Source: a virus
Taxonomy: Duplodnaviria > Caudoviricetes
Direction: 5' to 3' (one strand)
Length of the DNA stretch: 61,100 nucleotides
IMG/VR virus record: IMGVR_UViG_3300032259_000005
Span: 1-61,100 of that record
Below are positions 42,135 to 58,910 of this stretch, in pieces. Positions within the stretch are counted from its first letter, which is position 1, and the number at the start of each line of letters is the position of its first letter. The notes below the pieces were generated by a model. That model was not told the DNA's origin, searched no databases, and worked only from the letters and a program-made list of their open reading frames with translations. Both the position numbers and the translations under genes were made by a program.

Positions 42135-42485
42135 TTACTTTTTCCTTTCTTTCAACTGTTTTTGTCTACGAGATCGGACTTCATCCATACGAGTCGCTTC
42201 TATCTTGCCTTGCTTTGAGGTAAGGTAAATAGCTAAGTCGTCTATATACAAAGCTATTCTATGAAGCAACTCAGGGGTTATAGGATAACCAACTGTTTTC
42301 CTCATCTCTTGTTCGAGATCCTTATCAAAACGAGTCATGGAGAACTTTAAATTAGCCTCCTTCATTAGATAAGCGCCTACTCTATCTATATTAATACGTA
42401 GAACAGTAGGGTCCCTATGATCAGGAGCTATACAGGTTAGTATAGCCTGTATTCTTTTTTCTTTACCCTTGTCCAGTAGAGACAT
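42135..42485 (-). CDS. Hypothetical protein
   Basis: GAGG RBS. Overlaps the upstream gene end. Confidence 0.6.
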   Translation of the reverse strand: MSLLDKGKEKRIQAILTCIAPDHRDPTVLRINIDRVGAYLMKEANLKFSMTRFDKDLEQEMRKTVGYPITPELLHRIALYIDDLAIYLTSKQGKIEATRMDEVRSRRQKQLKERKK

Positions 42486-42867
42486 TTGCTACCTCTTCAA
42501 AAGTAGGCGGTACAACTTCTCCAGATTCTACATCCTTATAAAGCTTTATCGTACCTTTAACTTGCGCTATCATCATCTCCTCTAGATCTTCAATGCTATC
42601 TGAGTCCACGAGCATCATAGGAGCTTTAGCTTGGATAACTGTAGGGTCTTCCTGGTCATGATACTGAGGGATGCAGGACATGGACCATAGAACGCCATAC
42701 TTCCTTTTTCTTTCTCCGCCATTGATTATATCAGGGACCTTCTTGGAGATGTAAGGGCAGTACTGCACTTCCATCATGGGGTACACGCCTACACGTTTCT
42801 TTAAGTCTTCAGTGACATAATTATAGTCTTTTTCTTCTACTACTTTATCACTTTTTTGGTTTGTCAT
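42463..42867 (-). CDS. Hypothetical protein
   Basis: Co-oriented ORF in the operon. Confidence 0.6.
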   Translation of the reverse strand: MTNQKSDKVVEEKDYNYVTEDLKKRVGVYPMMEVQYCPYISKKVPDIINGGERKRKYGVLWSMSCIPQYHDQEDPTVIQAKAPMMLVDSDSIEDLEEMMIAQVKGTIKLYKDVESGEVVPPTFEEVANVSTGQG

Positions 42868-46000: not shown

Positions 46001-49000
46001 AGCAGGCTTAGGAGTAGACGTAGCTTTAACGGTAAGATTTAGCTTAGACCCTTTAGCTGGAGGGTTAGCTAATGTAACTTGGCTTATAAGCTCTGCAGTA
46101 AGAGGGTTATCCTCAGAGTCTCTTTTTACTACTTCTACTTGGCATATATTTCCTGCTGTATCTTCGTCAATGGTAAAGTTTATAGAATCATCTAGATCAT
46201 TAGCGTCCTGAAGAGGAATTGTAAAGTCTACATAGAAGGGATTCCAACCTGGATAGTATCCTCTGATAGATGCAACAGTATTGCCGTCACTAAAGTTAGA
46301 GCTACCACTTGAAGGAGTTAATGTAGTAAACGAATTATCTGAGCTTACTGACTCATTTCCATCTGTATCTTCAGACCTAACTCTGTAATGATAGAGTTGA
46401 TTACCAGACAGAGGAGATATAGAGAGGAAGTGACTTTGTGTTTTCTGAGTGCCCTTAGTAGCGGTCTCTCCATAGCCAGTAGTAAAGCCATACTCTACCG
46501 TTGAAGTTGCGTTTTCATCAGTGTCCCAGGCTATATCAGCATTAGTCGAACCAGTGTTCGCTACTCGCACGTTAGTTATTACTGGTGGAGTCCCATCTAA
46601 CGTAGTGAACGTGAAGTCTGGTGACTGACCTGAAGCTATCTGGCCAGAGTTAATGCTTCTAGCTCTGTAGTGATATTGTGTTTGCTCAGATAAATTAGAT
46701 AGACCAATAGTATGTGCAGTAGTTAAGGCGCCAAGGCTTTGCTGGCTGCCATATCCAATAGTTGGCCCGTAGTCTACTATAGAGTTAGCTGCGATAGACG
46801 TATTCCATGTTATACTGGCTGCACTAGATGTAACGTTAGATGAGTTAACATTCGTAATGCTTATTGTATTAGGATCTGTAATAAAGCTTTCGTTTAAACT
46901 ACCAGTAACTGAAACGTTATCGGCTTGGTCAGCTGCAGTAATTTGGAAGTAATATTGAGTAGATGGACTAAGATTCGTTATTGTAGTTGAGTTAGCTCCA
47001 TTGATATAAGTGCCACTAGTAGCAAGCTCTCCTGATAAATAGTTGCCAAACTGTCCCCATACTACCTTCTTATTTGCCGCTTCATTAGTATCCCACGACA
47101 CAGAGACTGTATCTTTACTAATTACATTCGATTGTACATTACTTATTATAGGGGCTGTAACATCTGGCGTAGAAAATTGCGCATCTAATGATTGACCTGT
47201 TACACCAGAGGCCGCACTACGAACTCTGTAGTGGAACGTCGTACCATCTTCAAGGCCAGCCATGCCAATGCTGTGATTGATAGTAGTCTCTCCGCTATTA
47301 CCAAATAAGCCAGTATATATGTTAGCTGTTCTGCCCCAGTCTACTAAAGTGCTAGACGGCTGACCTAATGTATCCCATGTGATAACAGCGCCAGTAGCAT
47401 TGATCTGATTAGCTTCAACATTACTTATCTCAATTGTTACTGGGTCAGTTGTAAAGAACTGTCCAGCTCCACCAGCTTGCACAAGGTTGCCAGCAGTGTC
47501 TGCTCCTTCAATATAGAAGAAGTACTTCGTGTTAGTGTCTAAGTTGGTTATCTGCTGTGAATGAATGTTTTGGTATAGGCCACTATTAATAGAGCTGCCC
47601 TTAGAGTAGGACAAATCTGTGCCCCATTCTATATGCTTATTAATATTCTCACTTGCAATCCAAGAGATATTAGCTGATGTCTTTGAGGGGTTACCAGTAT
47701 TGATCTCTGTTAAAATTGGTGGAGTTCCATCTAACGTAGTGAAGATAATATTAGATGACGAAGCTGACTGTGGTGAATTCTGAGATATTACCTTAGCATT
47801 GTAGACTGTGCTCTCTGACAGGCCAGTCAAAGCAATGCTATGAGAGGTTACATTAGAAGCGTCGAATACATTGCTACCATAACTAGTTGTTGGGCCATAT
47901 CTAACTTTGGAGTCACCTGCTGTATTAGTCTCCCAAGTAAATACAGCTCCAGAAGGAGTTATATTTACTACATCTATATTAGAAAGAGCAAACGACAATG
48001 CTGAATCTGAAGTAGTAAATGTTTTATTTGCGGTCTGACCTTGATTACCAGCTGAATCAGTAGCGGTAATCATATAGTTGTAAGTAGTAGAGAACGTTAA
48101 GCCTTGAAGACTTTTTGAGTGATTAAGTGCAAATGCATCTTGACTGTGTATTACAGAGCCATATGACTGAGTAGCTCCATAGTCTATACGACCAGTAGAT
48201 GGCTCATTAGTTGCCCAACCCATAGTGGCAGAGTTAAGCCCTATATTGGTTACGCCTACAGAAGACACATTTGGCGCAGTAATATCTAGTGTATTAAATG
48301 TTATGTCTGAGGATAGCTCAGAGATAGCTCCACTAGTGCTACTTACTTGAGCATGATACAATGTTTCGCTATTTAAGCCGCTTAGAATAACTTGATGATT
48401 TGTTACTAGTTCTCCAGCGTTACCTTGCGTATTCTCATAGGCTGTTGTCTCTCCATAATTAACTATAGAGTTACTGGCAACAGCAGTTGTCCAATCAAAG
48501 GTACTAGAGGTACCTCCTACATTGGAGACACTAATATTATTAATATTAATGGCTATTGAAGAAGTAGTGAACTCCTGTGTTACACCAGTGCTGGTATTGC
48601 CCGCTTGATCTGTAGCCACAGGGTACCATTCATAGTTAGTAAGAGGCACTAAGTTATTTAATATAGCAGAGTGACTAGTAGTTTGTGTAGCACTTGTAAC
48701 TTTCTTATTACTTAAGTTACCTACAGTTCCCCAGTTAATCTCTCCTGTTGTGCCTTCATCTGTAGTAAATACTGCGGTTGCATTAGCGAAGCCAATATTC
48801 TGTGTAGCAGCAGTGAGAAAGGTAGGTGCTATATTATCTACCGTAGTAAGGAATAAGTTATTAGATTTCTCGGTAGTATTTCCTGTTGCACTACTTACTC
48901 TAAAGTCATACCTAGTATCTCCAGACAGACCTGTCACTGTAACTGAGTGAGAACTTACAAGCTCTGTAGCGTTACCTTGTGATAATAAGTTGTATACTCC

Positions 49001-50173
49001 AGCAGGTGGGAACGAATCTCCTAGGTCAATTATTGAATTGGAGTTTAATTCTGTCTCCCAGTCAACAGTAAAGCCTGAAGTAGTTACGCTACTTGGCTGC
49101 ACATTATTAATGTTAATATTAAGAGCAGGAATAGTGAAGCTTAGGTCTCCTAGCTCTCCTGTTGTCCCAGAGTTCCCTGCAACGTCTGTAGCAGTTATTT
49201 TATACAAATAGGTAATACCACCTGCAAGACCAGTGACTGCTACTGAGTGAGCTGTGCCGAAGGCTATGGATGGACCAATAGTGCTACCAAAAGAAATATC
49301 AGTGCCGTAGTCTATTTGATCATCTGCTGCTTCATTAGTGTCAAACAGTATTGTGGCTGAGTCTATACCAGTAGCAACTGATAAATTACTTATTATTGGA
49401 GGTAAACCATCTAAAGTAACAAAATTGAATATGCCACTGGTACCTGTATTGTTACCAAAGTCTACTGACTCTACTTCATAGAAGTATTGTGTCTCACCAG
49501 TTAACCCCTCTAAACCAATTTGATGACTGGTGACTAAGCCTGCCTCTCCTATGACAGTTTCTCCTAGTCCTATGCTAGGTCCGTAATTTACTACGGAAGT
49601 AGCTGGCTCATTAGTGATCCAGCTAATCTCTATGTTGCCACTCGTTATATTGCCTGATGTTATACCTGATAACACAGGAGCTGTCGTATCAGCTGTTATA
49701 AAACTGCTAGCGATAGAAGCAGTATTTGAATTTACACTTAGATCTGAAGAGCTAGCTAGAATATAATAGGTAACGCCTTCTTCTAGGTTATTTAAACTTA
49801 CTACATGACTAAGGAGAGTGGGATCCCCTGTTGTAGTTAGGTCATAGTTTATGTTAGTACCATAGTTAACAACGCTAGTAGAGAACTCATCAGTGTCCCA
49901 AGTAACATTAGCGCCAGTAGTGGTTATACCACTAATGGCTAAATTACTAATTACCGGCGGTGTGATATCTCCAGTAGTCAAGAAGTTAGTTACACCAACG
50001 AATACTTTACGGTACTCTTGCAGCGTACCTATGCCTAGGTTGACAGAAGAAAGGTTGCCCGGAAGCGAGTCTGTACCAAAGACTGCTCCCGGACCGCCGC
50101 CATAGACAAGATCTCCTGAGGTCCCGGTAATACCGGAGAACTCTGGATTCCTTATGTTTATTGCCAGTGCCAT
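43037..50173 (-). CDS. Giant FN3-repeat protein with a large C-terminal globular domain (putative adhesin/appendage, 2378 aa)
   Basis: 13 counted repeats of P.I.N....IT...A.I.W.T.E.....V.YG...H...L.GL...T.Y.Y, then ~950 aa of non-repetitive aromatic-rich sequence. Confidence 0.85.
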   Translation of the reverse strand: MALAINIRNPEFSGITGTSGDLVYGGGPGAVFGTDSLPGNLSSVNLGIGTLQEYRKVFVGVTNFLTTGDITPPVISNLAISGITTTGANVTWDTDEFSTSVVNYGTNINYDLTTTGDPTLLSHVVSLNNLEEGVTYYILASSSDLSVNSNTASIASSFITADTTAPVLSGITSGNITSGNIEISWITNEPATSVVNYGPSIGLGETVIGEAGLVTSHQIGLEGLTGETQYFYEVESVDFGNNTGTSGIFNFVTLDGLPPIISNLSVATGIDSATILFDTNEAADDQIDYGTDISFGSTIGPSIAFGTAHSVAVTGLAGGITYLYKITATDVAGNSGTTGELGDLSFTIPALNININNVQPSSVTTSGFTVDWETELNSNSIIDLGDSFPPAGVYNLLSQGNATELVSSHSVTVTGLSGDTRYDFRVSSATGNTTEKSNNLFLTTVDNIAPTFLTAATQNIGFANATAVFTTDEGTTGEINWGTVGNLSNKKVTSATQTTSHSAILNNLVPLTNYEWYPVATDQAGNTSTGVTQEFTTSSIAININNISVSNVGGTSSTFDWTTAVASNSIVNYGETTAYENTQGNAGELVTNHQVILSGLNSETLYHAQVSSTSGAISELSSDITFNTLDITAPNVSSVGVTNIGLNSATMGWATNEPSTGRIDYGATQSYGSVIHSQDAFALNHSKSLQGLTFSTTYNYMITATDSAGNQGQTANKTFTTSDSALSFALSNIDVVNITPSGAVFTWETNTAGDSKVRYGPTTSYGSNVFDASNVTSHSIALTGLSESTVYNAKVISQNSPQSASSSNIIFTTLDGTPPILTEINTGNPSKTSANISWIASENINKHIEWGTDLSYSKGSSINSGLYQNIHSQQITNLDTNTKYFFYIEGADTAGNLVQAGGAGQFFTTDPVTIEISNVEANQINATGAVITWDTLGQPSSTLVDWGRTANIYTGLFGNSGETTINHSIGMAGLEDGTTFHYRVRSAASGVTGQSLDAQFSTPDVTAPIISNVQSNVISKDTVSVSWDTNEAANKKVVWGQFGNYLSGELATSGTYINGANSTTITNLSPSTQYYFQITAADQADNVSVTGSLNESFITDPNTISITNVNSSNVTSSAASITWNTSIAANSIVDYGPTIGYGSQQSLGALTTAHTIGLSNLSEQTQYHYRARSINSGQIASGQSPDFTFTTLDGTPPVITNVRVANTGSTNADIAWDTDENATSTVEYGFTTGYGETATKGTQKTQSHFLSISPLSGNQLYHYRVRSEDTDGNESVSSDNSFTTLTPSSGSSNFSDGNTVASIRGYYPGWNPFYVDFTIPLQDANDLDDSINFTIDEDTAGNICQVEVVKRDSEDNPLTAELISQVTLANPPAKGSKLNLTVKATSTPKPAASSYAPNKIGINDPSFTGFMTARMLLTQGTASSTLTDPSFNEKLIKDGHLCKQYRYYKRLLHSGIPTVGIHTYVTYFKNDPTILVEARVSNGHVNPDPNSGSTRETIGKIYFDELYIDYANGINGSKEITTAVLRNSMTEQTGLGTGSSSRLTLAKVQEQQHIMPPNSCFTRRFAIHDTGTGNKERAREESELSRLFVCQTGGLRDWHRVPGYLFGGLRIGELDSTYKTRWRGKSGILEVNTGYDGIEIPAKEWYEEGTKKRQQTGAPPGTPPPAGSGIALTGDEQGKAYGLWQPSHAKAQGPTGAPNVRPWMGCHLSIYMAKNAALLSQGSMERIFGWMYLDNGEFASVETWDAFYHNSSNSQVGETPAHTSSGIKWNWTSVINTNLYPYTYTGSNTNLVRAYNTGFCPYEGKIQQNSSNVWWDSNWAYYPIPGSNPPASYGGDQGFVSLDWQHWLPAFKHEPILSELLNDAITKDNIEAYSEMSCHGILSAFKQNGFGGGALMNKSGFPANTGTPFGRDYSPVGTLILQYAYGDTATRKRKAYTLQRLVEVINFVNPPSGVLDRRRNGTGGNTQKKTVGQWPGVDYYSSIGWNKFTDTNIGPQGKYDFATYQTQYIEGMLWGVTNLYLKNRWLNPTIEHPNDPFLTKTATQQQYNGMLQHHIDYASNFMPPDPINDPGATSAPMKKTGNGRQLIATWAVRHVASGETSIGEPGVVYNNGNSVIFATSAQTQLWDSDPAWPKQYPQIIKPVANPFQPDPYGLFGNGVSLLDNLHGWHQFVIGAVADHILNGTALNTNNKFLNGSNFYIESRSSIQAKLNWIMDLGDGIYDNLSPGNLKKINFTENGCAPLIGELQRALEAGASTGEQVKNVKLYLLRKPRVGQILIGTTPHYNDFITDNTSAQGSQKNIQWFSENGVLSPRPDFQVLGGFSKPVILRDENGVVGGNINVGTAKEFSVPIWIVHKIEESETEGGSFDFTLGIDAESV

Positions 50174-50194: not shown

Positions 50195-50551
50195 TTACGT
50201 ACATAGTGTCTCGTTTACGCATCGTACGCTGCCGTCTGATGCAACCCATTTCATTGTATCAGTATTATCAGTAGTGTATACAGTCTCTGTAGCTTGACCT
50301 TGTTGATACTTAAAAGTAGGAGCTACACTGTCAGGATGACCGGCTACATCGGCCCAGGTCTGATGACTCGGCCAAGTAATACCACTTGGTATAGTTTGGG
50401 CGGCTCCATTGTCACTATCTATTTTGTTAGCCTTCTTATAGCATCTCATCACAGTCTCTAGTAGCTCGAATCTTATACTATCTTCTAGGCCAATACTATC
50501 AGCCATTTCATTGACTTCAATAAGTAGTTGTTTTAAATCACCGCTTGTCAT
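50195..50551 (-). CDS. Hypothetical protein
   Basis: TAATG-coupled to the GroES gene. Confidence 0.55.
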   Translation of the reverse strand: MTSGDLKQLLIEVNEMADSIGLEDSIRFELLETVMRCYKKANKIDSDNGAAQTIPSGITWPSHQTWADVAGHPDSVAPTFKYQQGQATETVYTTDNTDTMKWVASDGSVRCVNETLCT

Positions 50552-50922
50552 TAGGCGTCCTTTCTAAGAGGGGCATTAGTAGAGCAGAGTATATCGTCCT
50601 CATGCAATACAATGAGTGCGCCGTTCGTTTCACCAGTCTCGAAGTCATTTATTTCACGAGCTGCATGCGTTTCAAACGCGACCAAGTCGCCCGTCGACCA
50701 GGGTCCTTGACAATCATTGCCAATTCTGCAAATAAGACCTCTTGTCTGCATCTCAACTGGAGATCCAGGAATAACGATACCACCTGCGGTGGTCTTTTCC
50801 ATCTCGATCTTTTTAACCAAGAGCCTGTGGCCGCAAGGCTTAAACTTGGTTTTCACGGAAGCATTTGGCGTTTTCTTCGTTCTCTTCATGGCATTCTGTT
50901 GTAGCTTGCTCGTAGTTTTCAT
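50551..50922 (-). CDS. groES: GroES-like co-chaperonin
   Basis: FKPCGHRLLVK, mobile loop EKTTAGGIVIP, GDLVAF and LHEDDIL. Confidence 0.9.
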   Translation of the reverse strand: MKTTSKLQQNAMKRTKKTPNASVKTKFKPCGHRLLVKKIEMEKTTAGGIVIPGSPVEMQTRGLICRIGNDCQGPWSTGDLVAFETHAAREINDFETGETNGALIVLHEDDILCSTNAPLRKDA

Positions 50923-51301
50923 TGTTTGTAATTGGAGGTGTATTTATTGGAGGTGTATTTATTAGTATGGATTCTATGATAGGTATATTAAGCTGTGAGG
51001 CAATTAAAGTCTCTACGAGTACTCCATTGGAGTTGCTGCTAATCGCGCCAGGAAGGAGCACTAGAGCGTCTGCAGAGATCATGCCGATGACATCACGCTT
51101 GAGTACATTCCAGTACTTCTCTCCATAGTCTGGATCATTTACTTGATCCATTTCGAGAGGACTGATAACAACATAGCCTAAGGCTCTGAGTCGCGTGGCT
51201 TCCGCGTCGAACGCGGGCTTATTAAGGTCCTCATAGCCCGTCATAGGGCCAGAGAGATATAAAACTTCTAGGGCGTTGCCCCAGGGATCACATGTGAACA
51301 T
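50840..51301 (-). CDS. DUF4406 / nucleoside-deoxyribosyltransferase-like protein
   Basis: YLSGPMTGYEDLNKPAF..EA..LR..GY.V.SP...D...ADALVLLPG...S.G...E...A. The likely start is ATG (MFTCDPW) at 51301. Confidence 0.8.
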   Translation of the reverse strand: MFTCDPWGNALEVLYLSGPMTGYEDLNKPAFDAEATRLRALGYVVISPLEMDQVNDPDYGEKYWNVLKRDVIGMISADALVLLPGAISSNSNGVLVETLIASQLNIPIIESILINTPPINTPPITNNENYEQATTECHEENEENAKCFRENQV

Positions 51302-51305
51302 TATA

Positions 51306-51569
51306 TTATTCGTCTGGGTCCAAGATGTAATAATCACGGACAAAGTATATAACATTCCCTCCATATAAAGATTGTATACAATGAGTCATCTTATTGAACT
51401 CCATTGCTATCTCCTGTTGCTGATCGGTAGTCAGCTCTCTAAATGGTAAGGTTTTTGTCCAGTCCATGGCTATCGATAATAAGGCTTGTAGCCTTAACTT
51501 GTTTCCGCTCTGGAACGTTCGTAACGTTTTATCGCAATAGAAGATGCAATCTTCTAGAGTACCTAGCAT
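51306..51569 (-). CDS. Hypothetical protein (first gene of the leftward arm)
   Basis: ATG-initiated ORF next to the divergent intergenic region. Confidence 0.55.
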   Translation of the reverse strand: MLGTLEDCIFYCDKTLRTFQSGNKLRLQALLSIAMDWTKTLPFRELTTDQQQEIAMEFNKMTHCIQSLYGGNVIYFVRDYYILDPDE

Positions 51570-51900
51570 TTAAAAAGTCTTATAGGGTAAAAAGCTAACA
51601 AAAAAATAAAAAAGAAAGAGGGGTCAAGACTAGCCGCGAGCTTTTGAAGTGCAGAGAACTTCAAGCGCGATAGAGCTGAACAGCTCTAGAGCTTTTGACA
51701 TGTTTGGAAAGTGTACCTGAAAAGAAGTCAATGATAGGCGCGACTTTTATAATAGCTTTGCTATTGCGTTCAGAATATAATTTCAGAGAAATTTTATACT
51801 ACAGGATATAAAAAAAGGGGAGTCGGGCTGGGTGATTATGTTTGTTTGTGGGTATATGAAGAAGTGGAAGTTCCATTTCATGCCCACGGGTCGTTTTCTG
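51570..51900. promoter_or_regulatory. Divergent intergenic control region
   Basis: Strand switch point with A-tracts, hairpins (TTGAAGT..ACTTCAA; TAGAGCTG-AA-CAGCTCTA) and isolated TTGACA and TATAAT hexamers without canonical spacing. Confidence 0.5.
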
Positions 51901-51912
51901 AAAGGAAACACC

Positions 51913-52320
51913 ATGTTTGCTCTCTTCTCGTTTCTGATCGTGGCTCTGTGTGTGTTCGTATTGGTCATCACTTGGTACAGTGATAACATCGTGAGTGTGC
52001 TGCGCTCATGTGTGGATCGCTTCGTACGGCTGTTCGTGGTCAAGGGTAGTGCGCTGTCTGGTAAGGAGATGCATGTGGCACTCATCAAGGAGAACAAGGC
52101 AAGGCAGCTCACTATTGACATGATGCGTGCACACAATAGGCATATGTCCTTCGTTGAGTGGTGTGAGGACACCGTTGAGTACGAGGCTACAATGGGATGG
52201 CAAGATGCTCAACAGGCATACTACTGGTTGGACGCATGTGGTAACTCATTGGTCAGTGAGGGTGCACATAGGATAGCTAGTAGGGAAGCGCAGAGGCAGA
52301 AGGAGATGGGTCAGTGGTAG
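51913..52320 (+). CDS. Cassette gene 1: N-terminally membrane-anchored hypothetical protein
   Basis: GAAAGGA RBS before ATG 51913, hydrophobic N-terminus, TAG stop. Confidence 0.7.
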   Translation: MFALFSFLIVALCVFVLVITWYSDNIVSVLRSCVDRFVRLFVVKGSALSGKEMHVALIKENKARQLTIDMMRAHNRHMSFVEWCEDTVEYEATMGWQDAQQAYYWLDACGNSLVSEGAHRIASREAQRQKEMGQW

Positions 52321-52445
52321 TGGTAGGGTAGTGGCAGGGTAGTAGTACAAGGGGGCTTGTATCATACATGTGTATGGTATAGGCCCCTTTTTTAGGTATG
52401 CATGTTGCTACCTATCGTTTCTACCCATGTCTGAAAGGACATATC

Positions 52446-52655
52446 ATGTTCAGTCGTCGTCACGAAACCAACGAGCTCCACGAAGAAGCCAAGATGAACC
52501 GTGCCGCCAAGGCGCAGCTCAAGCAGATCCACGTGGACCAGCAGATCGAGAGGACCGCGAGACGGACCCCGGAGCAGATCAAGTTCCAACGCGCTCGCAA
52601 GGCCCTCAAGATGACCGAGGTGCAGTACCAAGCGCATCTGGATCAAGCCAAGTAG
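52446..52655 (+). CDS. Cassette gene 2: small helical basic protein
   Basis: GAAAGGA RBS, C/G-ending codons, ends GCC AAG TAG. Confidence 0.75.
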   Translation: MFSRRHETNELHEEAKMNRAAKAQLKQIHVDQQIERTARRTPEQIKFQRARKALKMTEVQYQAHLDQAK

Positions 52656-52772
52656 TCTCTGACTGCTGAATGATTTAGGGGTGAGTACCACATGGTGCTT
52701 GCCCCTTTTTTAGAGGCATGCGCATTAAGCAATTGCCCAAGTCAATGCAACGACATGTTCAAGGAGAACATC

Positions 52773-52964
52773 ATGAAAGCCAAGATCCTCGACGACATCC
52801 AAGTCTACGAGCAAGCTCGTCCCGCTCATCGTGTGGCTGTGGATCGCAACGCAGCGCAGTACTTCGAGACTCAGCGGTTGGCGTACAAGCAGCCCAAGGG
52901 CAGTGTTCGTCGTGATCAGTTGCTCGCGCTGGCTGAGCGTCTGATTCGGCAGCGTCAAGGCTAG
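52773..52964 (+). CDS. Cassette gene 3: small hypothetical protein
   Basis: AAGGAG RBS before ATG 52773, TAG stop. Confidence 0.75.
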   Translation: MKAKILDDIQVYEQARPAHRVAVDRNAAQYFETQRLAYKQPKGSVRRDQLLALAERLIRQRQG

Positions 52965-53073
52965 TCCATAGGGACTGACAATCTAGGGGTGCATCATACA
53001 TATGTGTGATGTGCCCCTTTTTTAGAGGTAACGCATTCCGTGTTATCATTGCAACAGAGATAGAGACAGCGCT

Positions 53074-53331
53074 ATGCATATCAAACTCAAGATCGTCGTC
53101 CAAGCCAACGTCGTAGGTGTCACTGAGCACAACGACATGCCCTTCACTGATGGTGGGCTCAACGTCCAGTTCGAGAGCGACATGGACTGTACCCTGGAGG
53201 AGTACCAAGAGCTCCACACCAACACCATGGCCATCATCAACGAGGCCAAAGAGGCAGTTACTGGTGAGACCAAGGAAGAGCCCAAGAGCTGCATCTACTG
53301 TGCTGGCCAGGGCTGCAACCACTGTAGCTAG
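53074..53331 (+). CDS. Cassette gene 4: acidic protein with C-terminal CxxC.G.GCxxC
   Basis: Bounded by hairpin elements 3 and 4, TAG stop. Confidence 0.7.
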   Translation: MHIKLKIVVQANVVGVTEHNDMPFTDGGLNVQFESDMDCTLEEYQELHTNTMAIINEAKEAVTGETKEEPKSCIYCAGQGCNHCS

Positions 53332-53454
53332 ACCTTAGGGCCTAGACAACTACAAGGGGCTCGTCTATTAATTTAGGCGGGCCCCTTTTTTGATAGTGGT
53401 GTATTGATATGCATCACTTAGGTTTTACTGACACTAACAAGAAAGTATACTGAT

Positions 53455-53607
53455 ATGTCTAAGATGATTGAGAACATATGGTCTGATATGCACGAACACT
53501 TCATCGAGTGCTTCATCCTGTTGGTCATGTGGGTTGTTCCAATGACTACACCTCTTGCATTCGCAGCCACATGCTGCTGGTGCTACAACGCATGGACAAG
53601 GGACTAG
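53455..53607 (+). CDS. Small membrane protein (50 aa)
   Basis: MSKMIENIW...FILLVMWVVP...TRD*, read manually. Confidence 0.5.
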   Translation: MSKMIENIWSDMHEHFIECFILLVMWVVPMTTPLAFAATCCWCYNAWTRD

Positions 53608-53611
53608 TCAT

Positions 53612-53920
53612 ATGATCACTACCCAATGCTATGCATGTGACATCACTGTACTCGTGCATGATGAAGAGGAGGGTAAGCGCAACTACTGTGTTGTATGCAA
53701 GCCCCTTACTGATAGGCGCAGTGTGCATGCATGTACTCATTGTGGTGAGCCTGCCTCTATCATGACAGGTGTCAAGCAGTGTGTCCCTACTACCAAGGGC
53801 TATGTGTATACATACATGTGCCTCAGTGGTGTGTGCAAGGAGCGTGTGTATAGCCTGTTCAGTGCTAAGCCTACACATGAGGGTCGTGTGTTCAGAGTCC
53901 GTTACAAAAGGAGTAAGTGA
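53612..53920 (+). CDS. Cys-rich Zn-finger protein
   Basis: CYAC, CVVC, CTHC and CLSGVC. ATG at 53612. Confidence 0.65.
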   Translation: MITTQCYACDITVLVHDEEEGKRNYCVVCKPLTDRRSVHACTHCGEPASIMTGVKQCVPTTKGYVYTYMCLSGVCKERVYSLFSAKPTHEGRVFRVRYKRSK

Positions 53921-54018
53921 TATGTGGTTATGGATGTGTTACAGTTACTATCCGCTCAGTGAGTGGACCATCGAAGACTACCACGCATGGATGAAGTGGT
54001 AACAACAAGGAGACTGAT

Positions 54019-54159
54019 ATGAACATCAATGACGCCCCTAAGGCTACGTTCAGGCAGAACATGGTCACTATCATGGTGGTCTGTGTTGCTGCAACGAGAC
54101 TCACATGGTGGATGCTTACAAGCAAAGAGTTCAGGGACATGTGGGGGAAGCGTAAGTAG
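54019..54159 (+). CDS. Small membrane protein (46 aa)
   Basis: AAGGAG RBS. MNINDAPK...RK*. Ends AAG TAG before element 5. Confidence 0.6.
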   Translation: MNINDAPKATFRQNMVTIMVVCVAATRLTWWMLTSKEFRDMWGKRK

Positions 54160-54276
54160 TAGATAGCAGTCATACAAGGGGCTGTACTATTAAGTTAGTA
54201 TGGCCCCTTTTTTAGTGGTCGCGCATTGTAGTGTGACCCAGTTTCTGTTACCTCATGTACATAGGAGTACATAGTT

Positions 54277-54564
54277 ATGCAACTCAACATCAACATCCCC
54301 AGCTTCGCAGATGTCATCGAAGGCATCAACAAGCGCACCCGCAAGCCCATGTCAAGCAACACCTTGGAGATGAAGACCATCGTGCTCAAGTACGAGCGTC
54401 TCGATGAACTCATGTCAAGGGCCAACAAGATCGAGACCCAGATGGAGCGTGATGAGAGTGCCTACATCAAGGCTCGTGCCAAGAAAGAAGATAAGCTCCA
54501 CACCATCAAGGAAGAGCTGCAGTCGTTGGCCAAGGAGCTGCCGTCTGGTTCTGAAGAGAAGTAG
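54277..54564 (+). CDS. Cassette gene: coiled-coil protein
   Basis: AGGAG RBS, heptad-like K/E-rich helix, ends AAG TAG. Confidence 0.75.
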   Translation: MQLNINIPSFADVIEGINKRTRKPMSSNTLEMKTIVLKYERLDELMSRANKIETQMERDESAYIKARAKKEDKLHTIKEELQSLAKELPSGSEEK

Positions 54565-54686
54565 TCTCTAGGTAGAGTGTAATCAACAAGGGGTAGTATC
54601 ATTAGCTTGGTACTGCCCCTTTTTTAGGACACGCATTTTGTGTGTTCTGTTTTACTAAACGCCTAACTCAGAAGAGGCATACTACT

Positions 54687-55097
54687 ATGGGTATCATTCC
54701 CAACATCAACGTCACGCAAGCCACCTACAACTTCAGCATCAACACTGTCGAGTTCAAGAGTGGTGAAGGCCCTGACACTGGTGACCTGGTCCTGCACTGC
54801 CACATCATGGATGAGGGTCAGTTCAAGGGTACCAAGGTCCGTACGCTGTTCCGGTACACGGGTGAGGGTCGTGACAAGAAGACCAGTATGAAGCTCGGCG
54901 CTCTGACTACCCAAGTGGGTCTTGTAATGGAGTTGGTCTTCAAGGATGGAGAGAGTGCTGGTGATGCCTACGTCAACTGGCTCTGCGAAGCTCTGCCTGG
55001 TGCCAGCTTCATCAGTGAGGCCAAGACCTACAAGGGCGCTCCTTACGGTGAAGAGGTTGTCATGAACCTGTGCTTCATCGATCCCAACGCCAAGTAG
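54687..55097 (+). CDS. DUF669-like OB-fold ssDNA-binding protein candidate (A)
   Basis: ATYNFSINTVEFK...LVLHCHIMDEGQFKGTKV matches the DUF669 pattern GxYxxxIxxV...LxxxIxxGxxxGxxV. GAGG RBS. Confidence 0.5.
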   Translation: MGIIPNINVTQATYNFSINTVEFKSGEGPDTGDLVLHCHIMDEGQFKGTKVRTLFRYTGEGRDKKTSMKLGALTTQVGLVMELVFKDGESAGDAYVNWLCEALPGASFISEAKTYKGAPYGEEVVMNLCFIDPNAK

Positions 55098-55216
55098 GCT
55101 AGTGGTCTGATGTAATACTACAAGGGGTAAGTCTATTAAATTAGGCTTGCCCCTTTTTTAGGACGTACGCATTGTGCGTTCTATTCACAGTTACCTAACC
55201 ACAGAAAGGACCCGCC

Positions 55217-55621
55217 ATGGGTTCCAAGTTCACTTCAGAAGACATCAACGACATGCCCGCAACCATCGAAGACGGCACTTACCTGCTGCAGCTGAAGACG
55301 GTGAAGGACAACCCGAAGTCGTGGACGTTCATGACTCGTATCGCAGATGGTCCGCTCACTGACAAGGAGGTGTTGCTGGTCATCCCTGTGTCCAATGATC
55401 CGGTGCAGGAGAGGACCAACAAGCGCAAGGTGATTCACATGATCACTGCGTTCTCTGGTGAGCGTCCCAAGAGCAACCGTCAGGGCACTGAGAAGTACAT
55501 CACGGCTTCGTGTGTCGACAAGCTCGCTGTGATGCAGATCTGGCGTCAGCGTGATCAGTACGGTCGTCCCAACGGTTACTGGGGCTTCTGGATTGACATG
55601 CCTGCGTCTGCCAACGTCTAG
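55217..55621 (+). CDS. DUF669-like OB-fold ssDNA-binding protein candidate (B)
   Basis: DGTYLLQLKTVK...WTFMTRIADGPLTDKEV. GAAAGGA RBS. Confidence 0.5.
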   Translation: MGSKFTSEDINDMPATIEDGTYLLQLKTVKDNPKSWTFMTRIADGPLTDKEVLLVIPVSNDPVQERTNKRKVIHMITAFSGERPKSNRQGTEKYITASCVDKLAVMQIWRQRDQYGRPNGYWGFWIDMPASANV

Positions 55622-55723
55622 TCACTAAACTAGCCAGTTAACTACAAGGGGTACATCTATTAAATTAGGTGTGCCCCTTTTTTAGAGTGTAATAGTGCAC
55701 TCTGTTACAAGGAAAGCTAGGCA

Positions 55724-55933
55724 ATGAAGAAGAACGTTACTACTACACTGGTGATGGTCCTGGTCGTACTGACCATCGGCCTCGTTACATCGAACCTGCT
55801 GGGCCTCTGGCTTGGCTACAACCACGTCATCGGTCAACACGAAGGCAAGGGCTTCTGGCACAGGGTCTGCACTGAATGCCCATGCTTGGTCCACGAGGGG
55901 TGTCACCCCATGAAGGGGAACAGTAATGAGTGA
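55724..55933 (+). CDS. Small membrane protein with C-terminal Cys/His cluster
   Basis: Hydrophobic N-terminus, CTECPC..H..CH, AAGGA RBS. Confidence 0.6.
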   Translation: MKKNVTTTLVMVLVVLTIGLVTSNLLGLWLGYNHVIGQHEGKGFWHRVCTECPCLVHEGCHPMKGNSNE

Positions 55934-56081
55934 ATGTCAAGAGAAGGCTCTGAAGAGAGTCTTCATGAAGAACTTCGTTTGGCATCGCAAAGTGCGAGGC
56001 TTCACCCAGAAGCAGCTTGAGGAGGCAGGCCGCTCATTTGCGACCAGCTTTCTCAAGTGGCAAAGTGAATGGGCCAAGTAG
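55926..56081 (+). CDS. Small hypothetical protein (51 aa)
   Basis: MSECQEKALK...WAK*, read manually. Ends GCC AAG TAG before element 9. Confidence 0.6.
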   Translation: MSECQEKALKRVFMKNFVWHRKVRGFTQKQLEEAGRSFATSFLKWQSEWAK

Positions 56082-56200
56082 GCGGGTCTAGACAATTACA
56101 AGAGGCAGGCATCAGCAATGGTGTCTGCCCCTTTTTTAGGTAGTAGCCCGAGCGAAGCGAGGGCGTTACTATTGGTTACTCTTACCTTAGGAGGTTACTC

Positions 56201-56356
56201 ATGTTCTACTATGTGCTACTAGGTATTATTGTGCTATTCCCTATTGTTAGGGTATGGCTTGCTAATAATAAGCGGCGAGCGAAGCGAGCTGCTAGTAATG
56301 AACTACGTGATTATGTGCGTATGGTGATTAAGCGCGATCTTGGAAAGGATGCGTGA
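56201..56356 (+). CDS. Small membrane protein (51 aa)
   Basis: AGGAGG RBS. MFYYVLLGIIVLFPIV... then a basic tail. Confidence 0.6.
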   Translation: MFYYVLLGIIVLFPIVRVWLANNKRRAKRAASNELRDYVRMVIKRDLGKDA

Positions 56357-56550
56357 TGACAAATGTGACGCTGGCTAGTATTAAAGGTGATCTTCAAGTA
56401 AGGATGGCTATTAAGCAACTTGTTGTAAATACACTTACTGAGAAGGATATCTTGCAATATATTGCTGTACTTCAAGATAATATGATTGATCTTAAGGTAC
56501 GTGTACGTGACCTGGAAGACAAGCTAAAAGGAGTGACTGATGGACGATGA
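56353..56550 (+). CDS. Small coiled-coil protein
   Basis: Start overlaps the upstream stop. GAAAGGA RBS. Confidence 0.55.
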   Translation: MMTNVTLASIKGDLQVRMAIKQLVVNTLTEKDILQYIAVLQDNMIDLKVRVRDLEDKLKGVTDGR

Positions 56551-56707
56551 AAAGTGTATTTGTATGATCTGTTCTAAAGAGATATTTAAATATGATGCTT
56601 ATACCAGTGATGCTAAATGGTGGTGTATTGTATGCGATGTTCGTTTGTGCGAGCTCTATGCTGAAACTCTTACTGAAGGTATTCTGAAGAAACTGGAGTT
56701 GATATGA
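56540..56707 (+). CDS. Small Zn-finger protein (CxxC...WWCxxC)
   Basis: AAGGAG RBS. MDDEKCICMICSK...WWCIVC, read manually. Confidence 0.6.
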   Translation: MDDEKCICMICSKEIFKYDAYTSDAKWWCIVCDVRLCELYAETLTEGILKKLELI

Positions 56708-56898
56708 GCAAGAAAGAGATAGTGATACGACTGTGTATGCTTACTACTAAAGTCATGAATAAGAAGTACAATTATACTGAGCCCGCAGATTGTTTCTGTG
56801 ATGCTAGTGTGCTTAATAGTTCCTTTAACTTCAGCCCTGAGGTACTGAAGTTCATTGAGGAAGCTGTTGACGAGAAGCTTGAAAAGGAGACTGTCTGA
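56704..56898 (+). CDS. Hypothetical protein (PADCFC motif)
   Basis: ATGA overlap and GGAG RBS. Confidence 0.6.
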   Translation: MSKKEIVIRLCMLTTKVMNKKYNYTEPADCFCDASVLNSSFNFSPEVLKFIEEAVDEKLEKETV

Positions 56899-57608
56899 TG
56901 AAAGATAGAACTGATGTCGCGATTTGTGAGCAATGCGGTCAAAGCATTCTCATTTCTGAAGCTGGTTGCATCGAGTACAATTCATTGTACTGGTGCAAGA
57001 CATGCTGTGGTCAGTCTCATATGAGTCCTGACTGTGACAAGAACTATGACTACGACGAGCCTGAGCTCGTCAACGTTGATGGTGAGGAGCCCATGTGTCT
57101 AGTCTGTGGCAAGCCTGGTCCTGACAGGATTTGTCCTGATTGTGAGCCCAAGTGTCGAGGTTGTGGAACAACCTACGACTTGAGTGATGGTTGGTGTCTT
57201 GCTTGTGCTAGGCGAAGCGAGGGACCTACTCACATCAGTGGACCTATTGCTGATGTGCTCGCGTCTATTACCGTTGAAAAGCCCAAGGACAATATGATTG
57301 ATTGCAGTGAATGCAATACTACTGGCGTTATTCATAGGTATGTTCGTGTAACATGCTTGTGTGAGAACTGTGAAGGCCAAGGACACTTTCCTGAGCCGCC
57401 TATTACCATTGACCGACAGCCAGAAGACCCTGGTAAGTACCATGGCGTTATGAAGAGGTCATGGATGGATCATGATACGTGCTTGGCATGTAACATGAAT
57501 CGGGTGGATACTAATAGTTATCCTGCTTACTGTGATGAGTGCTTGGACTACTACCGCGAGCTTGACTTGTGGTCTATGCGCATGGATATGCCTGAAGGCA
57601 TTGAGTGA
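56898..57608 (+). CDS. Multi-Zn-ribbon protein (about 10 CxxC motifs)
   Basis: CEQC/CKTC, CLVC/CPDC, CRGC/CLAC, CSEC/CENC and CLAC/CDEC pairs. Confidence 0.7.
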   Translation: MKDRTDVAICEQCGQSILISEAGCIEYNSLYWCKTCCGQSHMSPDCDKNYDYDEPELVNVDGEEPMCLVCGKPGPDRICPDCEPKCRGCGTTYDLSDGWCLACARRSEGPTHISGPIADVLASITVEKPKDNMIDCSECNTTGVIHRYVRVTCLCENCEGQGHFPEPPITIDRQPEDPGKYHGVMKRSWMDHDTCLACNMNRVDTNSYPAYCDECLDYYRELDLWSMRMDMPEGIE

Positions 57609-57610
57609 AC

Positions 57611-57639
57611 GTGTTATGGCCCTTGTTGGGCCATAATAC
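57611..57639 (+). terminator. 12-bp stem-loop right after the stop codon
   Basis: GTGTTATGGCCC-TTGTT-GGGCCATAATAC with one G-U pair and a weak U-tract. Confidence 0.5.
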
Positions 57640-57714
57640 ACTAGTTTGACCCTTGAGTGACTAATAAAATGTTTATTAGCGCGCTTATTACCCTGTTTAG
57701 ACACTGGAGTCAAC

Positions 57715-57858
57715 ATGGAAGATAGAGACTTGATGTTACTAGTCCTTGGATGTTTGGTAGGCTGGCCCTTGGGCAAGCTAGCGTTCTACTTGTACCTTGA
57801 GTATCAAGAGCGTAAGCGTCTTAAGAGGCTGCATAAGAAGTGGAAGGAGAGTGAATAA
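57715..57858 (+). CDS. Small membrane protein (47 aa)
   Basis: GGAG RBS, hydrophobic segment followed by a basic tail. Confidence 0.55.
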   Translation: MEDRDLMLLVLGCLVGWPLGKLAFYLYLEYQERKRLKRLHKKWKESE

Positions 57859-58150
57859 AGCCCCCGAAGGCTATGTGCCTTCTAGGGGTCTAGAAGTGGT
57901 CTCCCACCCTAGGGGATATCGATACCACCCCTCTTTAAGATGCCTAGAACAATGGTTCTAGCGGGGGACCTTATCTCCGGGGTTCTTAGGACTATGAGTA
58001 TGAGGTATATAAGATGCAATATATTGTGTAATATCTCTTGTTTTAGTGTTACATCTACATCTAAAATAATAAGTAGTGGGGGTGAGTATATGTGTGTGGG
58101 ATAGCTAGTAAGTGGTTCTAAAAAAGGTTTTAGAGGGTCTCTATGTGTTT

Positions 58151-58208
58151 GTGAGTATCTAAATGGATATATTGGTGAGTATCTAAATGGATATAATCGT
58201 ATCTAAAT
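58151..58208. repeat. Tandem 24-bp-period direct repeat GTGAGTATCTAAATGGATATA (x2 plus a partial third)
   Basis: Copies at 58151-58171 and 58175-58195, plus GTATCTAAAT at 58199-58208. Confidence 0.85.
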
Positions 58209-58234
58209 CAACTGTTTTGACTGAAAGGACACTG

Positions 58235-58429
58235 ATGATTCATGAAACTGATGTTGTAGTGTGTGAGCACTGCAAAAAGAGCGTACTCAAGGGTGACACT
58301 GTACAGAACTTGGATACCTACTGGTGTACTGAGTGTAATGAGGTACTAATTGAAAATCAAGAGTGGCTCCGTAAGAGCCATCTCTATGGTACTGATGAGT
58401 CTAATTGGCCTAAGGGTGTATCTGATTGA
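58235..58429 (+). CDS. Small Zn-finger protein (CxxC...YWCxxC)
   Basis: GAAAGGA RBS before ATG 58235. Confidence 0.65.
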   Translation: MIHETDVVVCEHCKKSVLKGDTVQNLDTYWCTECNEVLIENQEWLRKSHLYGTDESNWPKGVSD

Positions 58430-58460
58430 TAATTCCCGCGATTTCTAACAAGGAAGACTG

Positions 58461-58622
58461 ATGACAATCATTCTACTGATTATCTATGGTATTGGAGCCT
58501 ATCTAAGGTATGCTAGTCTTACAGAGGATAGTCGTAATAACTTGAATGACTATTATAAGTATGGGTATTCAATGTTCTGGCCTATTCATATGTTTAATAT
58601 GACTAGGAAACAGGATCTATAA
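58461..58622 (+). CDS. Small membrane protein (53 aa)
   Basis: Starts at a junction-motif ATG. Hydrophobic N-terminus and FWP motif. Confidence 0.55.
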   Translation: MTIILLIIYGIGAYLRYASLTEDSRNNLNDYYKYGYSMFWPIHMFNMTRKQDL

Positions 58623-58658
58623 TACTAATACCCGCGATTCTAACAAGGAGAATGACTG

Positions 58659-58907
58659 ATGAGTAAGGTTACAGTAGACTGGATTACTTGGAGTCACACT
58701 AGGCAAATTGAATTTGCTCGTGATACTGAGCATTGTGATAGGTATCAGGAGTTCGTATATGAAGATAAGGAGATAATTGATTGCTTCCCGTGCTTGAAAG
58801 ATTCAAGTATAGTCAAGACTACAGTAGATCCTGATAAAGGGGAGTATACTGTTACTTATGGTAGAAGGGTCTACACTGCTAATACCCGAGATTCTAAGGA
58901 GAACTGA
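58659..58907 (+). CDS. Hypothetical protein
   Basis: AAGGAG RBS within the junction motif. Confidence 0.65.
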   Translation: MSKVTVDWITWSHTRQIEFARDTEHCDRYQEFVYEDKEIIDCFPCLKDSSIVKTTVDPDKGEYTVTYGRRVYTANTRDSKEN

Positions 58908-58910
58908 CTG

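Follow-up and report, generated by a model that had tools for sequence, protein, structure and literature searches.

The closest described systems are the promoter early stem-loop (PeSL) elements of T4-type phages. As far as the published account describes them, these are modules of about 100 bp that reach from the stop codon of one gene to the ATG of the next, carry a stem-loop with G/C tracts and are flanked by ORFan genes (PMC2839356). In the sections of the literature that treat their function, the stem-loop is a terminator or an attenuator and the module ends in a Shine-Dalgarno (SD) site (PMC2839356; PMC4122927). According to the same sections, PeSLs sit in a plastic region of the genome, where the close copies give homology for gene shuffling (PMC2839356; PMC4122927). 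Here we describe an array of nine intergenic modules in a virus record of IMG/VR, IMGVR_UViG_3300032259_000005, the 61,100 bp of which are called the window in the following. The array punctuates a block of small plus-strand genes, and its most conspicuous part is a hairpin, H1, with a GCCCC-T6 end. The original prediction, which was made from these hairpins, likened them to T4-type PeSL regulatory cassettes and to the host-takeover module of phage SPO1. This analogy holds in architecture, as homologous intergenic modules bound unrelated ORFan genes. To the extent that the PeSL accounts go, the window modules share with PeSLs the G/C-tract stem-loop, the SD end, the stop-to-ATG extent and an ORFan cargo that differs in relatives. 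Beyond what had been predicted, the analysis brought out a second hairpin (H2), the extent of the module from stop to start codon, a compositional island and a box at the head of this island.

The motif GCCCCTTTTTT, which represents the GCCCC-T6 end, is present in nine exact copies, all on the plus strand, at 52383, 52701, 53013, 53381, 54203, 54615, 55149, 55673 and 56127. The nine copies are those of the original prediction, and 0.91 would be expected by chance. A tenth match with one mismatch lies on the minus strand at 51811, and ten matches were reached in none of 100 shuffles. Outside the array, the record of 61.1 kb has no further exact copy, and none came up in a backwards control. The T run is exactly six nucleotides long in every copy and is followed by AG in eight of them and by GA in copy 4, and copies 4–9 can be aligned without gaps over 42 nt, each measuring 30 nt from the first G to the last C; the six T, the AG after eight copies and the length of 30 nt had been stated before and are borne out. 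The hairpin with its U6 folds in all nine copies with z-scores of −4.2 to −8.0, and no copy was equalled by any of 200 shuffles. The folding free energy (ΔG) of H1 ranges from −19.8 to −27.4 kcal/mol in the nine copies, and the stems, formerly put at 12–17 bp, come to 13–19 bp once the flanking A-U pairs are counted. They are clamped by GGGG/CCCC in eight copies and by GAGG in copy 9. Moreover, H1 always starts 21–33 nt past the stop codon of a plus-strand open reading frame (ORF). A strict terminator finder (ΔG of −12 or lower, at least 7 bp and at least five T) returned nine sites in the window, all of which are the array, and none in the remaining 57 kb. All nine copies therefore combine the sequence features of an intrinsic terminator, namely a stable G/C-rich stem-loop, an adjacent U-tract and a position 3′ of a gene on the coding strand, and to judge from the sequence H1-U6 is very probably an intrinsic terminator of plus-strand transcripts.

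The inner stems of H1 differ between copies and still pair. In an alignment of the nine copies that was fitted by a model and is hence biased in favour of the structure, pairing is seen in 97.6% of 124 cells, and double-sided changes occur in 7 of 14 pairs (23 cells). The percentage of paired cells, the number of double-change cells and the covariation score were each reached by 0 of 500 shuffles, while the count of pairs with double changes was reached in 59 of 500, so that this single measure is not exceptional. Controls slid along the sequence were 38–63% paired. The numbers of G-U pairs per H1 stem on the plus strand are 4, 3, 3, 2, 2, 2, 2, 2 and 2 for copies 1–9, whereas the reverse complement has none in eight copies and one in copy 9, which also contains one A-C pair. 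The predicted placing of the G-U pairs on the plus strand and the A-C pair of copy 9 were thus confirmed, and only the predicted range of two to three G-U pairs per stem has to be widened, since copy 1 has four. The summed ΔG of H1 is −210 kcal/mol on the plus strand and −130 kcal/mol on the reverse complement. Because the reverse complement folds far worse and the G-U pairs lie on the plus strand, the folding species is the plus strand, with mRNA as the simplest candidate. The covariation and the strand asymmetry of the folding energy bear out the predicted selection on a plus-strand structure, and on this evidence the structure is selected in the coding strand. In addition, a covariance model built from copies 4–9 (R1) found the nine plus-strand copies as its sole strong matches in the window.

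Each H1 is followed by a second RNA hairpin, H2, which begins at the last T or at most 4 nt later in all nine copies. Its stem has 8–11 pairs in most copies, again with the G-U pairs on the plus strand, and its z-scores range from −1.8 to −4.3. The plus strand of H2 is more stable than the complement in seven of nine copies, with summed ΔG values of −111 versus −76 kcal/mol. CGCATT stands at the H2 apex and is exact in five of nine copies (shuffle maximum 3), and TACGCATT is found with at most two mismatches in all nine (shuffle maximum 8). In H1 and H2 alike, the apices and flanks are better conserved than the mid-stems. Downstream of H2, a leader of 20–40 nt runs to a clear SD site and an ATG, and some copies have a CCTAAC or GTTAC box in it, the spacing of which from CGCATT varies between 14 and 32 nt. 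The gap from T6 to ATG measures 43–66 nt and is filled mostly by H2 and the SD site. The conserved module, present nine times, extends from the stop codon (usually TAG, often followed by TC) to the next start codon and is about 100–130 nt long.

All modules lie on the plus strand. Module 1 (52347–52414) has H1 with T6 at 52347–52395 and H2 at 52393–52414; module 2 (52674–52737) has them at 52674–52713 and 52715–52737, with CGCATT at the apex; and module 3 (52982–53047) at 52982–53025 and 53027–53047, also with CGCATT. In module 4 (53352–53418), H1 with T6 (53352–53393) is followed by GA and by H2 at 53395–53418. Modules 5 (54174–54239) and 6 (54586–54649) both contain CGCATT, with H1 and T6 at 54174–54215 and 54586–54627 and H2 at 54215–54239 and 54625–54649, respectively. 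Module 7 (55120–55183) consists of H1 with T6 at 55120–55161 and H2 with TACGCATT at 55159–55183, after which a ACCTAACC box follows. In module 8 (55644–55704), the two parts occupy 55644–55685 and 55683–55704. Module 9 (56098–56172), with H1 and T6 at 56098–56139 (including the A-C pair) and H2 at 56140–56172, marks the end of the island rich in G and C at third codon positions (GC3). A possible third hairpin, small and spanning the stop codon, was considered and discarded as not significant (z of −3.6 in one copy and −1.3 to +1.0 in the other eight). No Rfam family was found, the sole match being a chance-level snoRNA (E=0.78), and a search for tRNAs found none. As a separate observation, GAGCGAAGCGAG occurs twice (0.13 expected), at 56150–56161 in the H2 apex of module 9 and at 56277–56288 inside the next ORF.

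The modules close nine units with 13 ORFs in all, one module per unit; unit 4 contains four ORFs and unit 8 two. All ORFs are on the plus strand. The first island ORF, o0 (51913–52320), encodes 135 amino acids (aa) with a hydrophobic N-terminus, ends in TAG and matches no family at the curated threshold. It is followed by o1 (52446–52655, 69 aa), o2 (52773–52964, 63 aa) and o3 (53074–53331, 85 aa, with a C-terminal CxxC..CxxC motif), all with TAG stops. Cassette 4 (53455–54159) comprises o4a (53455–53607), the Cys-rich o4b (53612–53920), o4c (53922–54002) and o4d (54019–54159) and is without internal terminator; for o4b, there is only a weak sub-threshold zinc-finger match. Then come o5 (54277–54564, 95 aa), o6 (54687–55097, 136 aa) and o7 (55217–55621, 134 aa), again ending in TAG, and cassette 8 (55724–56081) with the overlapping o8a (55724–55933, TGA stop) and o8b (55926–56081, TAG stop). 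The 13 ORFs are mutually unrelated (best pairwise E=0.18), their products belong to no Pfam or PHROG family, and no homologues of them were found in 1.33 Mb of related loci. For o7, tblastn against GenBank phages gave no match, a word-index search of large protein collections returned only o7 itself, and an exhaustive phmmer search returned o7 itself and four long repeat proteins matching residues 27–73. A structure and feature search of the ESM Atlas gave a lead to a DUF669 fold, similar to that of single-stranded DNA-binding proteins (SSB), with template-modelling (TM) scores of 0.61–0.69 for o6 and 0.65–0.72 for o7. As a lead only, the adjacent o6 and o7 may thus have a common DUF669/SSB-like fold despite the lack of mutual sequence similarity. 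Pfam DUF669 itself did not match o6 or o7 even at an E of 10, and the single-sequence AlphaFold2 models were poor, with a predicted local distance difference test (pLDDT) score of 44 for o6 and 37 for o7.

These genes form a compositional island at 51913–56139. Their GC3 is 0.51–0.77, against a mean of 0.37 in 30 structural ORFs, and TAG is the stop codon in 10 of 12 island ORFs versus 6 of 30 structural ORFs, where TAA prevails (Fisher p=2.5e-4). The 16 ORFs downstream (56201–61100) have a GC3 of 0.24–0.60, and their stops are mostly TGA overlapping the next start.

A box that is absent from the internal modules stands at the head of the island. This head box, TCATGCCCAC (51878–51887, plus strand; consensus CAYGCCCAC), ends 25 nt before the first island ATG and is the sole copy in the window, where 0.06 would be expected. 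CAYGCCCACC was found once each, on the island strand and at the island head, in 12 loci, which represent nine distinct related records. The distance from the box to the first ATG is 25–45 nt in the window and in L044, L047, L056, L071, L078, L092, L097, L103 and L104, and the box is invariant in a four-way alignment of island heads. Read from the sequence, an A-rich stretch, TATAAAAAAA (51806–51817, plus strand), precedes the head box by about 60 nt, and its A run aligns in three of the four island heads compared. TATAAAAAAA is a candidate for the −10-like region of a putative head promoter; a sigma-70 scan called no promoter at this stretch. Between 50 and 61.1 kb, the same scan gave 20 sites versus 19.7 expected, with none at a fixed position in the modules, in agreement with the earlier remark that no sigma-70 consensus is visible; a promoter of a non-canonical type is conceivable. 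Nor was any motif pair with fixed spacing found across the nine modules. Two sigma-70 arrangements read manually were rejected, one with the −10 in the H1 loop (TAGACA-17-TATTAA, copy 4 only) and one spanning T6 and H2 (TTTAGA-17-TATCAT, copy 3 only), as both fail across the nine copies.

As for related phages, the best match of the large terminase (TerL) among GenBank phages is that of Moorella phage MTATph1, with 36% identity, and other matches belong to the Bacillus phage 0305phi8-36 group. With terminase neighbours this distant, we take the phage for an uncultured myovirus that is only distantly related to them, its genome being estimated at roughly 180–190 kb. No match to the region was obtained by blastn among 50,697 phage records of GenBank. 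The pattern AAGGGG-N18-26-GCCCCTTTTTTAG found 23 loci in IMG/VR, a single site each (one of them palindromic and read on both strands), and ACAAGGGG-N20-24-GCCCCTTTTTTAG found five loci in Joint Genome Institute (JGI) metagenomes, once each; neither blastn nor tblastx showed a relation of any of these 28 loci to the window. Used as single-protein queries, TerL and the neighbouring protein of 2378 aa gave no close relatives, whereas an alignment of terminase homologues led to 70 related IMG/VR loci with 36–60% identity. R1 found no array in MTATph1 and 0305phi8-36, and none in 18 related IMG/VR records, three of which had isolated weak matches.

For loci that reach 7 kb or more upstream of TerL, an island was then defined as three or more divergent ORFs whose GC3 exceeds the locus baseline by 0.2 or more. 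A GC3-rich divergent island was present in 7 of 27 qualifying loci, and five more had two such ORFs at the locus edge, two of which (G003 and G019) were confirmed by extra sequence. The island-bearing relatives have a TerL identity of 40–55%. In G006, which is near-complete, a homologue of the window gene at 42463–42867 borders directly on the island, which is thus syntenic. The intergenic regions in the related islands are long and strongly structured, and three relatives (G019, G003 and G006) have the two-hairpin layout. Two modules of G019 contain a GGGGAG...CTCCCC stem of 17 bp, TTTTAYTG, an H2 with TACGCA at the apex, ACCTAACC and an SD site. TACGCA and ACCTAACC are common to the window modules and G019, and by this comparison parts of the module are evidently constrained in sequence. 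In G003, H1 has the same 12+6+12 geometry as in the window and a ATTAAGTT loop, is without a T run, and ranks second among the R1 matches in the nine related loci that were searched (E 0.003). Of the modules of G006, two end in T8 and two have no T run. Canonical hairpin and T-run sites number zero in the related island of G003, two in that of G019 and two in that of G006. The island and the module type are thus kept in relatives with a complete turnover of the genes, and the dense T6 array is lineage-specific. The search of relatives for the element, which had been proposed with the original prediction, thus found the module type kept and the cargo different, and it did not find the nine-terminator array.

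Two further kinds of hairpin were observed in the related loci. Just after island stops at L059:3470, L092:2664, L097:2687 and 1371, and L104:1871 (island strand), AGACCT is followed by a short hairpin that covaries and has a TGTCTATAAAC loop; this loop resembles the window H1 loop GTCTATTAAA and is too short to be separated from chance. The likeness of GTCTATTAAA to GTCTATAAAC in hairpins of L059, L092, L097 and L104 was dismissed as too short to be told apart from chance, with 56 matches in 1.35 Mb. Moreover, six related loci have a syntenic hairpin with T6-7, a terminator with covarying stems, on the plus strand at a distance of about 4 kb upstream from the terminase (L059:5699, L060:6232, L062:5787, L092:5863, L097:6045 and L104:5777).

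We favour the reading that the island is one early operon, which starts at the head signal and is punctuated by terminator or attenuator modules and by RNA-stability hairpins, and we consider the chances that it is right to be evenly balanced. It is preferred because there is one head signal, there are no module promoters, and two hairpins are kept where the U-tract is lost. The island would be an early-gene block of 13 ORFan genes in nine units, each closed by a paralogous intercistronic module. Transcription would start at the single conserved head signal, made up of the A-rich stretch and the CAYGCCCAC box, and H1-U6 would end or attenuate plus-strand transcripts after each unit, so that distal units could be expressed only via partial read-through or regulated antitermination. 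The resulting RNAs might be protected by H1 at the 3′ end and by H2 at the 5′ end. Since homology is confined to the modules and does not extend to the cargo, it is probably in the modules that homologous exchange takes place, which would turn over the cargo genes. Termination, read-through, RNA protection, recombination and early timing are what we infer from these data.

Several observations weigh against this single-operon reading. Nine serial efficient terminators would starve the distal genes, so that a mechanism of read-through or antitermination is required, and neither an antiterminator nor internal promoters were identified in the island. With its hydrophobic N-terminus, o0 is presumably unlike a known antiterminator such as lambda N. 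The head box is only 9–10 nt long and without a conserved fold, as no consensus fold was found for the head leader. Most island hairpins of the relatives are without a U-tract, so that the module may be conserved for a role other than termination. When the 1.33 Mb of related loci were searched by nhmmer with profiles of the whole module and of H1, no match fell below E=0.17; the homology of modules across phages therefore rests on architecture and on motifs of 6–9 nt. Early timing is suggested by position and gene content only. The phage was found in four sediment-metagenome runs, all of them DNA runs. Furthermore, the island segments covered by contigs of the other three of these runs are identical, and no gain or loss of cassettes is seen in them.

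Another explanation would be that the cassettes are autonomous and PeSL-like, each module having a terminator and its own promoter, either non-sigma-70 or host-specific, which perhaps overlaps the hairpins. It would account for expression beyond nine strong terminators, and the motifs 3′ of T6 are indeed conserved (CGCATT in five of nine copies, TACGCATT in all nine with up to two mismatches, and GTTAC/CCTAAC), with TACGCA and ACCTAACC common to G019 as well. In the PeSLs, as far as the account describes their promoters, the stem-loop is often placed over the −10 box or in the spacer between the −35 and −10 boxes (PMC2839356). Copy 4 has a −10-like hexamer in its H1 loop. Neither scan nor manual reading, however, gave a −35/−10 pair at consistent spacing over the nine copies, the 43–66 nt between T6 and ATG are mostly taken up by H2 and the SD site, the spacing of the conserved motifs is not constant (14–32 nt), and the sole clade-wide signal sits at the island head, outside the modules. 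We regard autonomous cassettes as unlikely, if worth keeping in view. The same head signal would suit a processing or stability punctuation, in which one polycistronic RNA is cut by an endonuclease in the pyrimidine-rich linker and the hairpins protect the monocistronic RNAs, termination being secondary. The two hairpins and a short U- or pyrimidine-rich linker are kept where the H1 of relatives lacks the U-tract (G003-b and G006 type B), H2 starts 0–4 nt past the last U in all nine copies, and an analogy is offered by the RNase III sites between the genes of the T7 early operon and by the repetitive extragenic palindromic (REP) stabilisers. This explanation leaves aside that all nine copies have a complete terminator anatomy with exactly six U, for which processing alone has no need, and that H1 and H2 show no internal loops or other features that could be linked to a known nuclease; we find it quite unlikely.

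The original prediction went further and took the invariant flank as stricter than intrinsic termination needs, and hence as a sign of sequence-specific recognition. This claim is not supported: a G/C clamp and a U-tract are what intrinsic termination itself favours, and the equivalent flank varies in relatives (T8, TTTTAYTG or no T run), so that the invariance of GCCCC-T6 is specific to this lineage. Dedicated recognition by a protein on RNA or single-stranded DNA could take the form of an N/boxB-like antiterminator at H2, a recombination site like attC or those of IS200/IS605, or an N4-like promoter. The greater conservation of apices and flanks over mid-stems in H1 and H2 would fit, G-T pairs are tolerated in plus-strand single-stranded DNA too, o6 and o7 have the putative SSB-like fold, and the cargo is unrelated between cassettes, as in gene-cassette arrays. 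Against this stand the lack of conservation of the invariant flank in relatives and the absence of integrase, transposase, recombinase and polymerase domains from the window ORFs scanned, which is weak evidence for a missing enzyme gene because the record represents no more than 32% of the genome. The neighbouring protein of 2378 aa is of the Fn3-repeat type, and an N4-like promoter is opposed by a coding strand that folds with stems of 13–19 bp, as the N4 type uses the template strand and short stems. No variants, joints, circles or cassette differences in the island were seen in contigs of the four metagenome runs, which cover parts of it only and drop rare forms. Recognition of this kind is thus highly improbable. 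Taken jointly, the two-hairpin modules and the head box could also be a clade-specific platform for expression and gene capture. A phage or host factor loaded at the CAYGCCCAC leader would be re-engaged at each H2 apex (ACGCAUU) and take the polymerase through terminators that are otherwise absolute; the island would then be expressed by transcripts from the head signal only. Frequent homologous exchange between the repeated modules would turn over the ORFan cargo, and GC-biased gene conversion arising from it, a process known from elsewhere, would hold GC3 at about 0.7 in an AT-rich genome. In effect, a whole clade of phages of about 180 kb would have a counterpart of a gene-cassette array that works without an integrase. 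That all of these details hold together we consider very unlikely.

The remainder of the window gives the setting of the island. CheckV estimates the completeness of the record at 32%. Structural and packaging genes occupy the minus strand from position 1 to 51.4 kb, and small plus-strand genes begin at about 51.9 kb. The minus-strand products include a tail sheath, a major head protein, a portal, the large terminase, a Cpn10-like protein, a DUF4406 protein and four giant proteins of 1453–2378 aa, in which no polymerase domain was found in the scan. To the left of the island lies the gene at 43037–50173 (minus strand), the 2378-aa product of which has many Fn3 and purple-acid-phosphatase-N-type repeats; for a protein of 2377 aa, only a sub-threshold SET1_RBD match was recorded. 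The Cpn10 (GroES)-like and DUF4406 proteins, also to the left, are encoded at 50551–50922 and 50840–51364 (both minus strand). The window terminase (639 aa) is without intein domains, while several related large terminases of about 1000 aa have Hint and LAGLIDADG intein domains (homologues P0015, P0016, P0038, P0045 and others; in G006 at 57433–60420). In one metagenome run (X3), a contig matches the 3′ end of o5, diverges at 54543 just before the stop and still has TAGTCTC after the stop; it is possibly a related strain with different neighbouring sequence.

Downstream of the island, a second intergenic repeat family, ACCCGCGATTCTAA, stands directly before the SD sites of consecutive small genes in the AT-richer region, with three copies with at most one mismatch at 58630–58643, 58884–58897 and 59364–59377 and variants near 58435, 59125 and 59664. 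The start context TGGAGAAAACTGATGAA, with stop-start overlaps of the TGATG type, recurs at about 59725–59745, 60285–60305 and 60985–61005 and at many junctions between 56.3 and 59.4 kb. These arrangements suggest translational coupling downstream of the island, where no strong terminator exists. A non-coding region of about 600 nt (57600–58190) contains several hairpins and direct repeats (e.g. TGAGTATCTAAATGGATATA twice), with no Rfam match and no tRNA. A run of small Cys-rich proteins of the CxxC type, whose zinc-finger matches are weak and sub-threshold, is encoded at 56540–57608 and 58187–59674.

Much of the gene content of large phages that is still unexplored lies in their early and host-takeover regions, and the ways in which these genes are expressed and exchanged have been worked out in few models. 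The island described here is a compact and delimited case, with a two-hairpin module, a clade-wide head signal and a recurrent jump of about 0.3 in GC3 together with a preference for TAG. If read-through or antitermination is true, it would represent a new regulatory layout for phage early operons, and if the modules mediate exchange, shuffling of the PeSL type would be extended beyond T4-like phages; composition and head box could also serve as a handle for finding early or anti-host gene islands in metagenomic phage contigs. As predicted parts, the nine terminators would be a ready set of diverged, non-identical strong terminators.

Searches of the literature for equivalents, on GC3 differences between early and late phage genes and on the terminators of 0305phi8-36, surfaced none, and the print record may hold some. 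Among the systems that are known, ordinary Rho-independent terminators have in common with H1 the G/C-rich stem and U-tract after the stop on the coding strand, the compensatory changes and the one-directionality of the G-U pairs; unlike them, the array has nine copies of one family within 3.8 kb, stems of 13–19 bp and a coupled second hairpin. The lambda N/nut, HK022 put and EAR/LoaP-type systems combine a cis signal in the 5′ leader with several intrinsic terminators. Similarly, the island has a head signal in the leader and a first short gene before the first terminator. Its nine terminators in 4 kb are far denser, however, and H2 follows every one of them; as to an antiterminator protein, no island protein matches any family, and no leader RNA fold was found. 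The SPO1 host-takeover module has recognisable host-type promoters, and the T7 early operon has RNase III sites without U-tracts. Both are, like the island, compact blocks of small early genes with repeated signals or hairpins, and neither SPO1-type promoters nor U-tract-free RNase III sites as in T7 were found here. Compared with integron attC arrays, the window hairpins have near-perfect stems and T6, which is the anatomy of terminators. The N4 hairpin promoters, which are short hairpins of the template strand that a giant virion RNA polymerase reads, differ in that it is the coding strand that folds in the window, with stems of 13–19 bp in H1 and 8–11 bp in H2. From the PeSLs, as far as these are described, the window modules are set apart by the lack of a sigma-70-type −35/−10 promoter with an AT-rich upstream element, by the second covarying hairpin after each terminator and by the location of the whole block in a GC3 and TAG island with a single conserved head box. 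Furthermore, the window phage is not T4-like, its TerL being 36% identical to that of MTATph1. As no sigma-70 promoter was found in the modules and the phage lineage is unrelated, the modules would be PeSL-like in their way of working and not members of the PeSL family.

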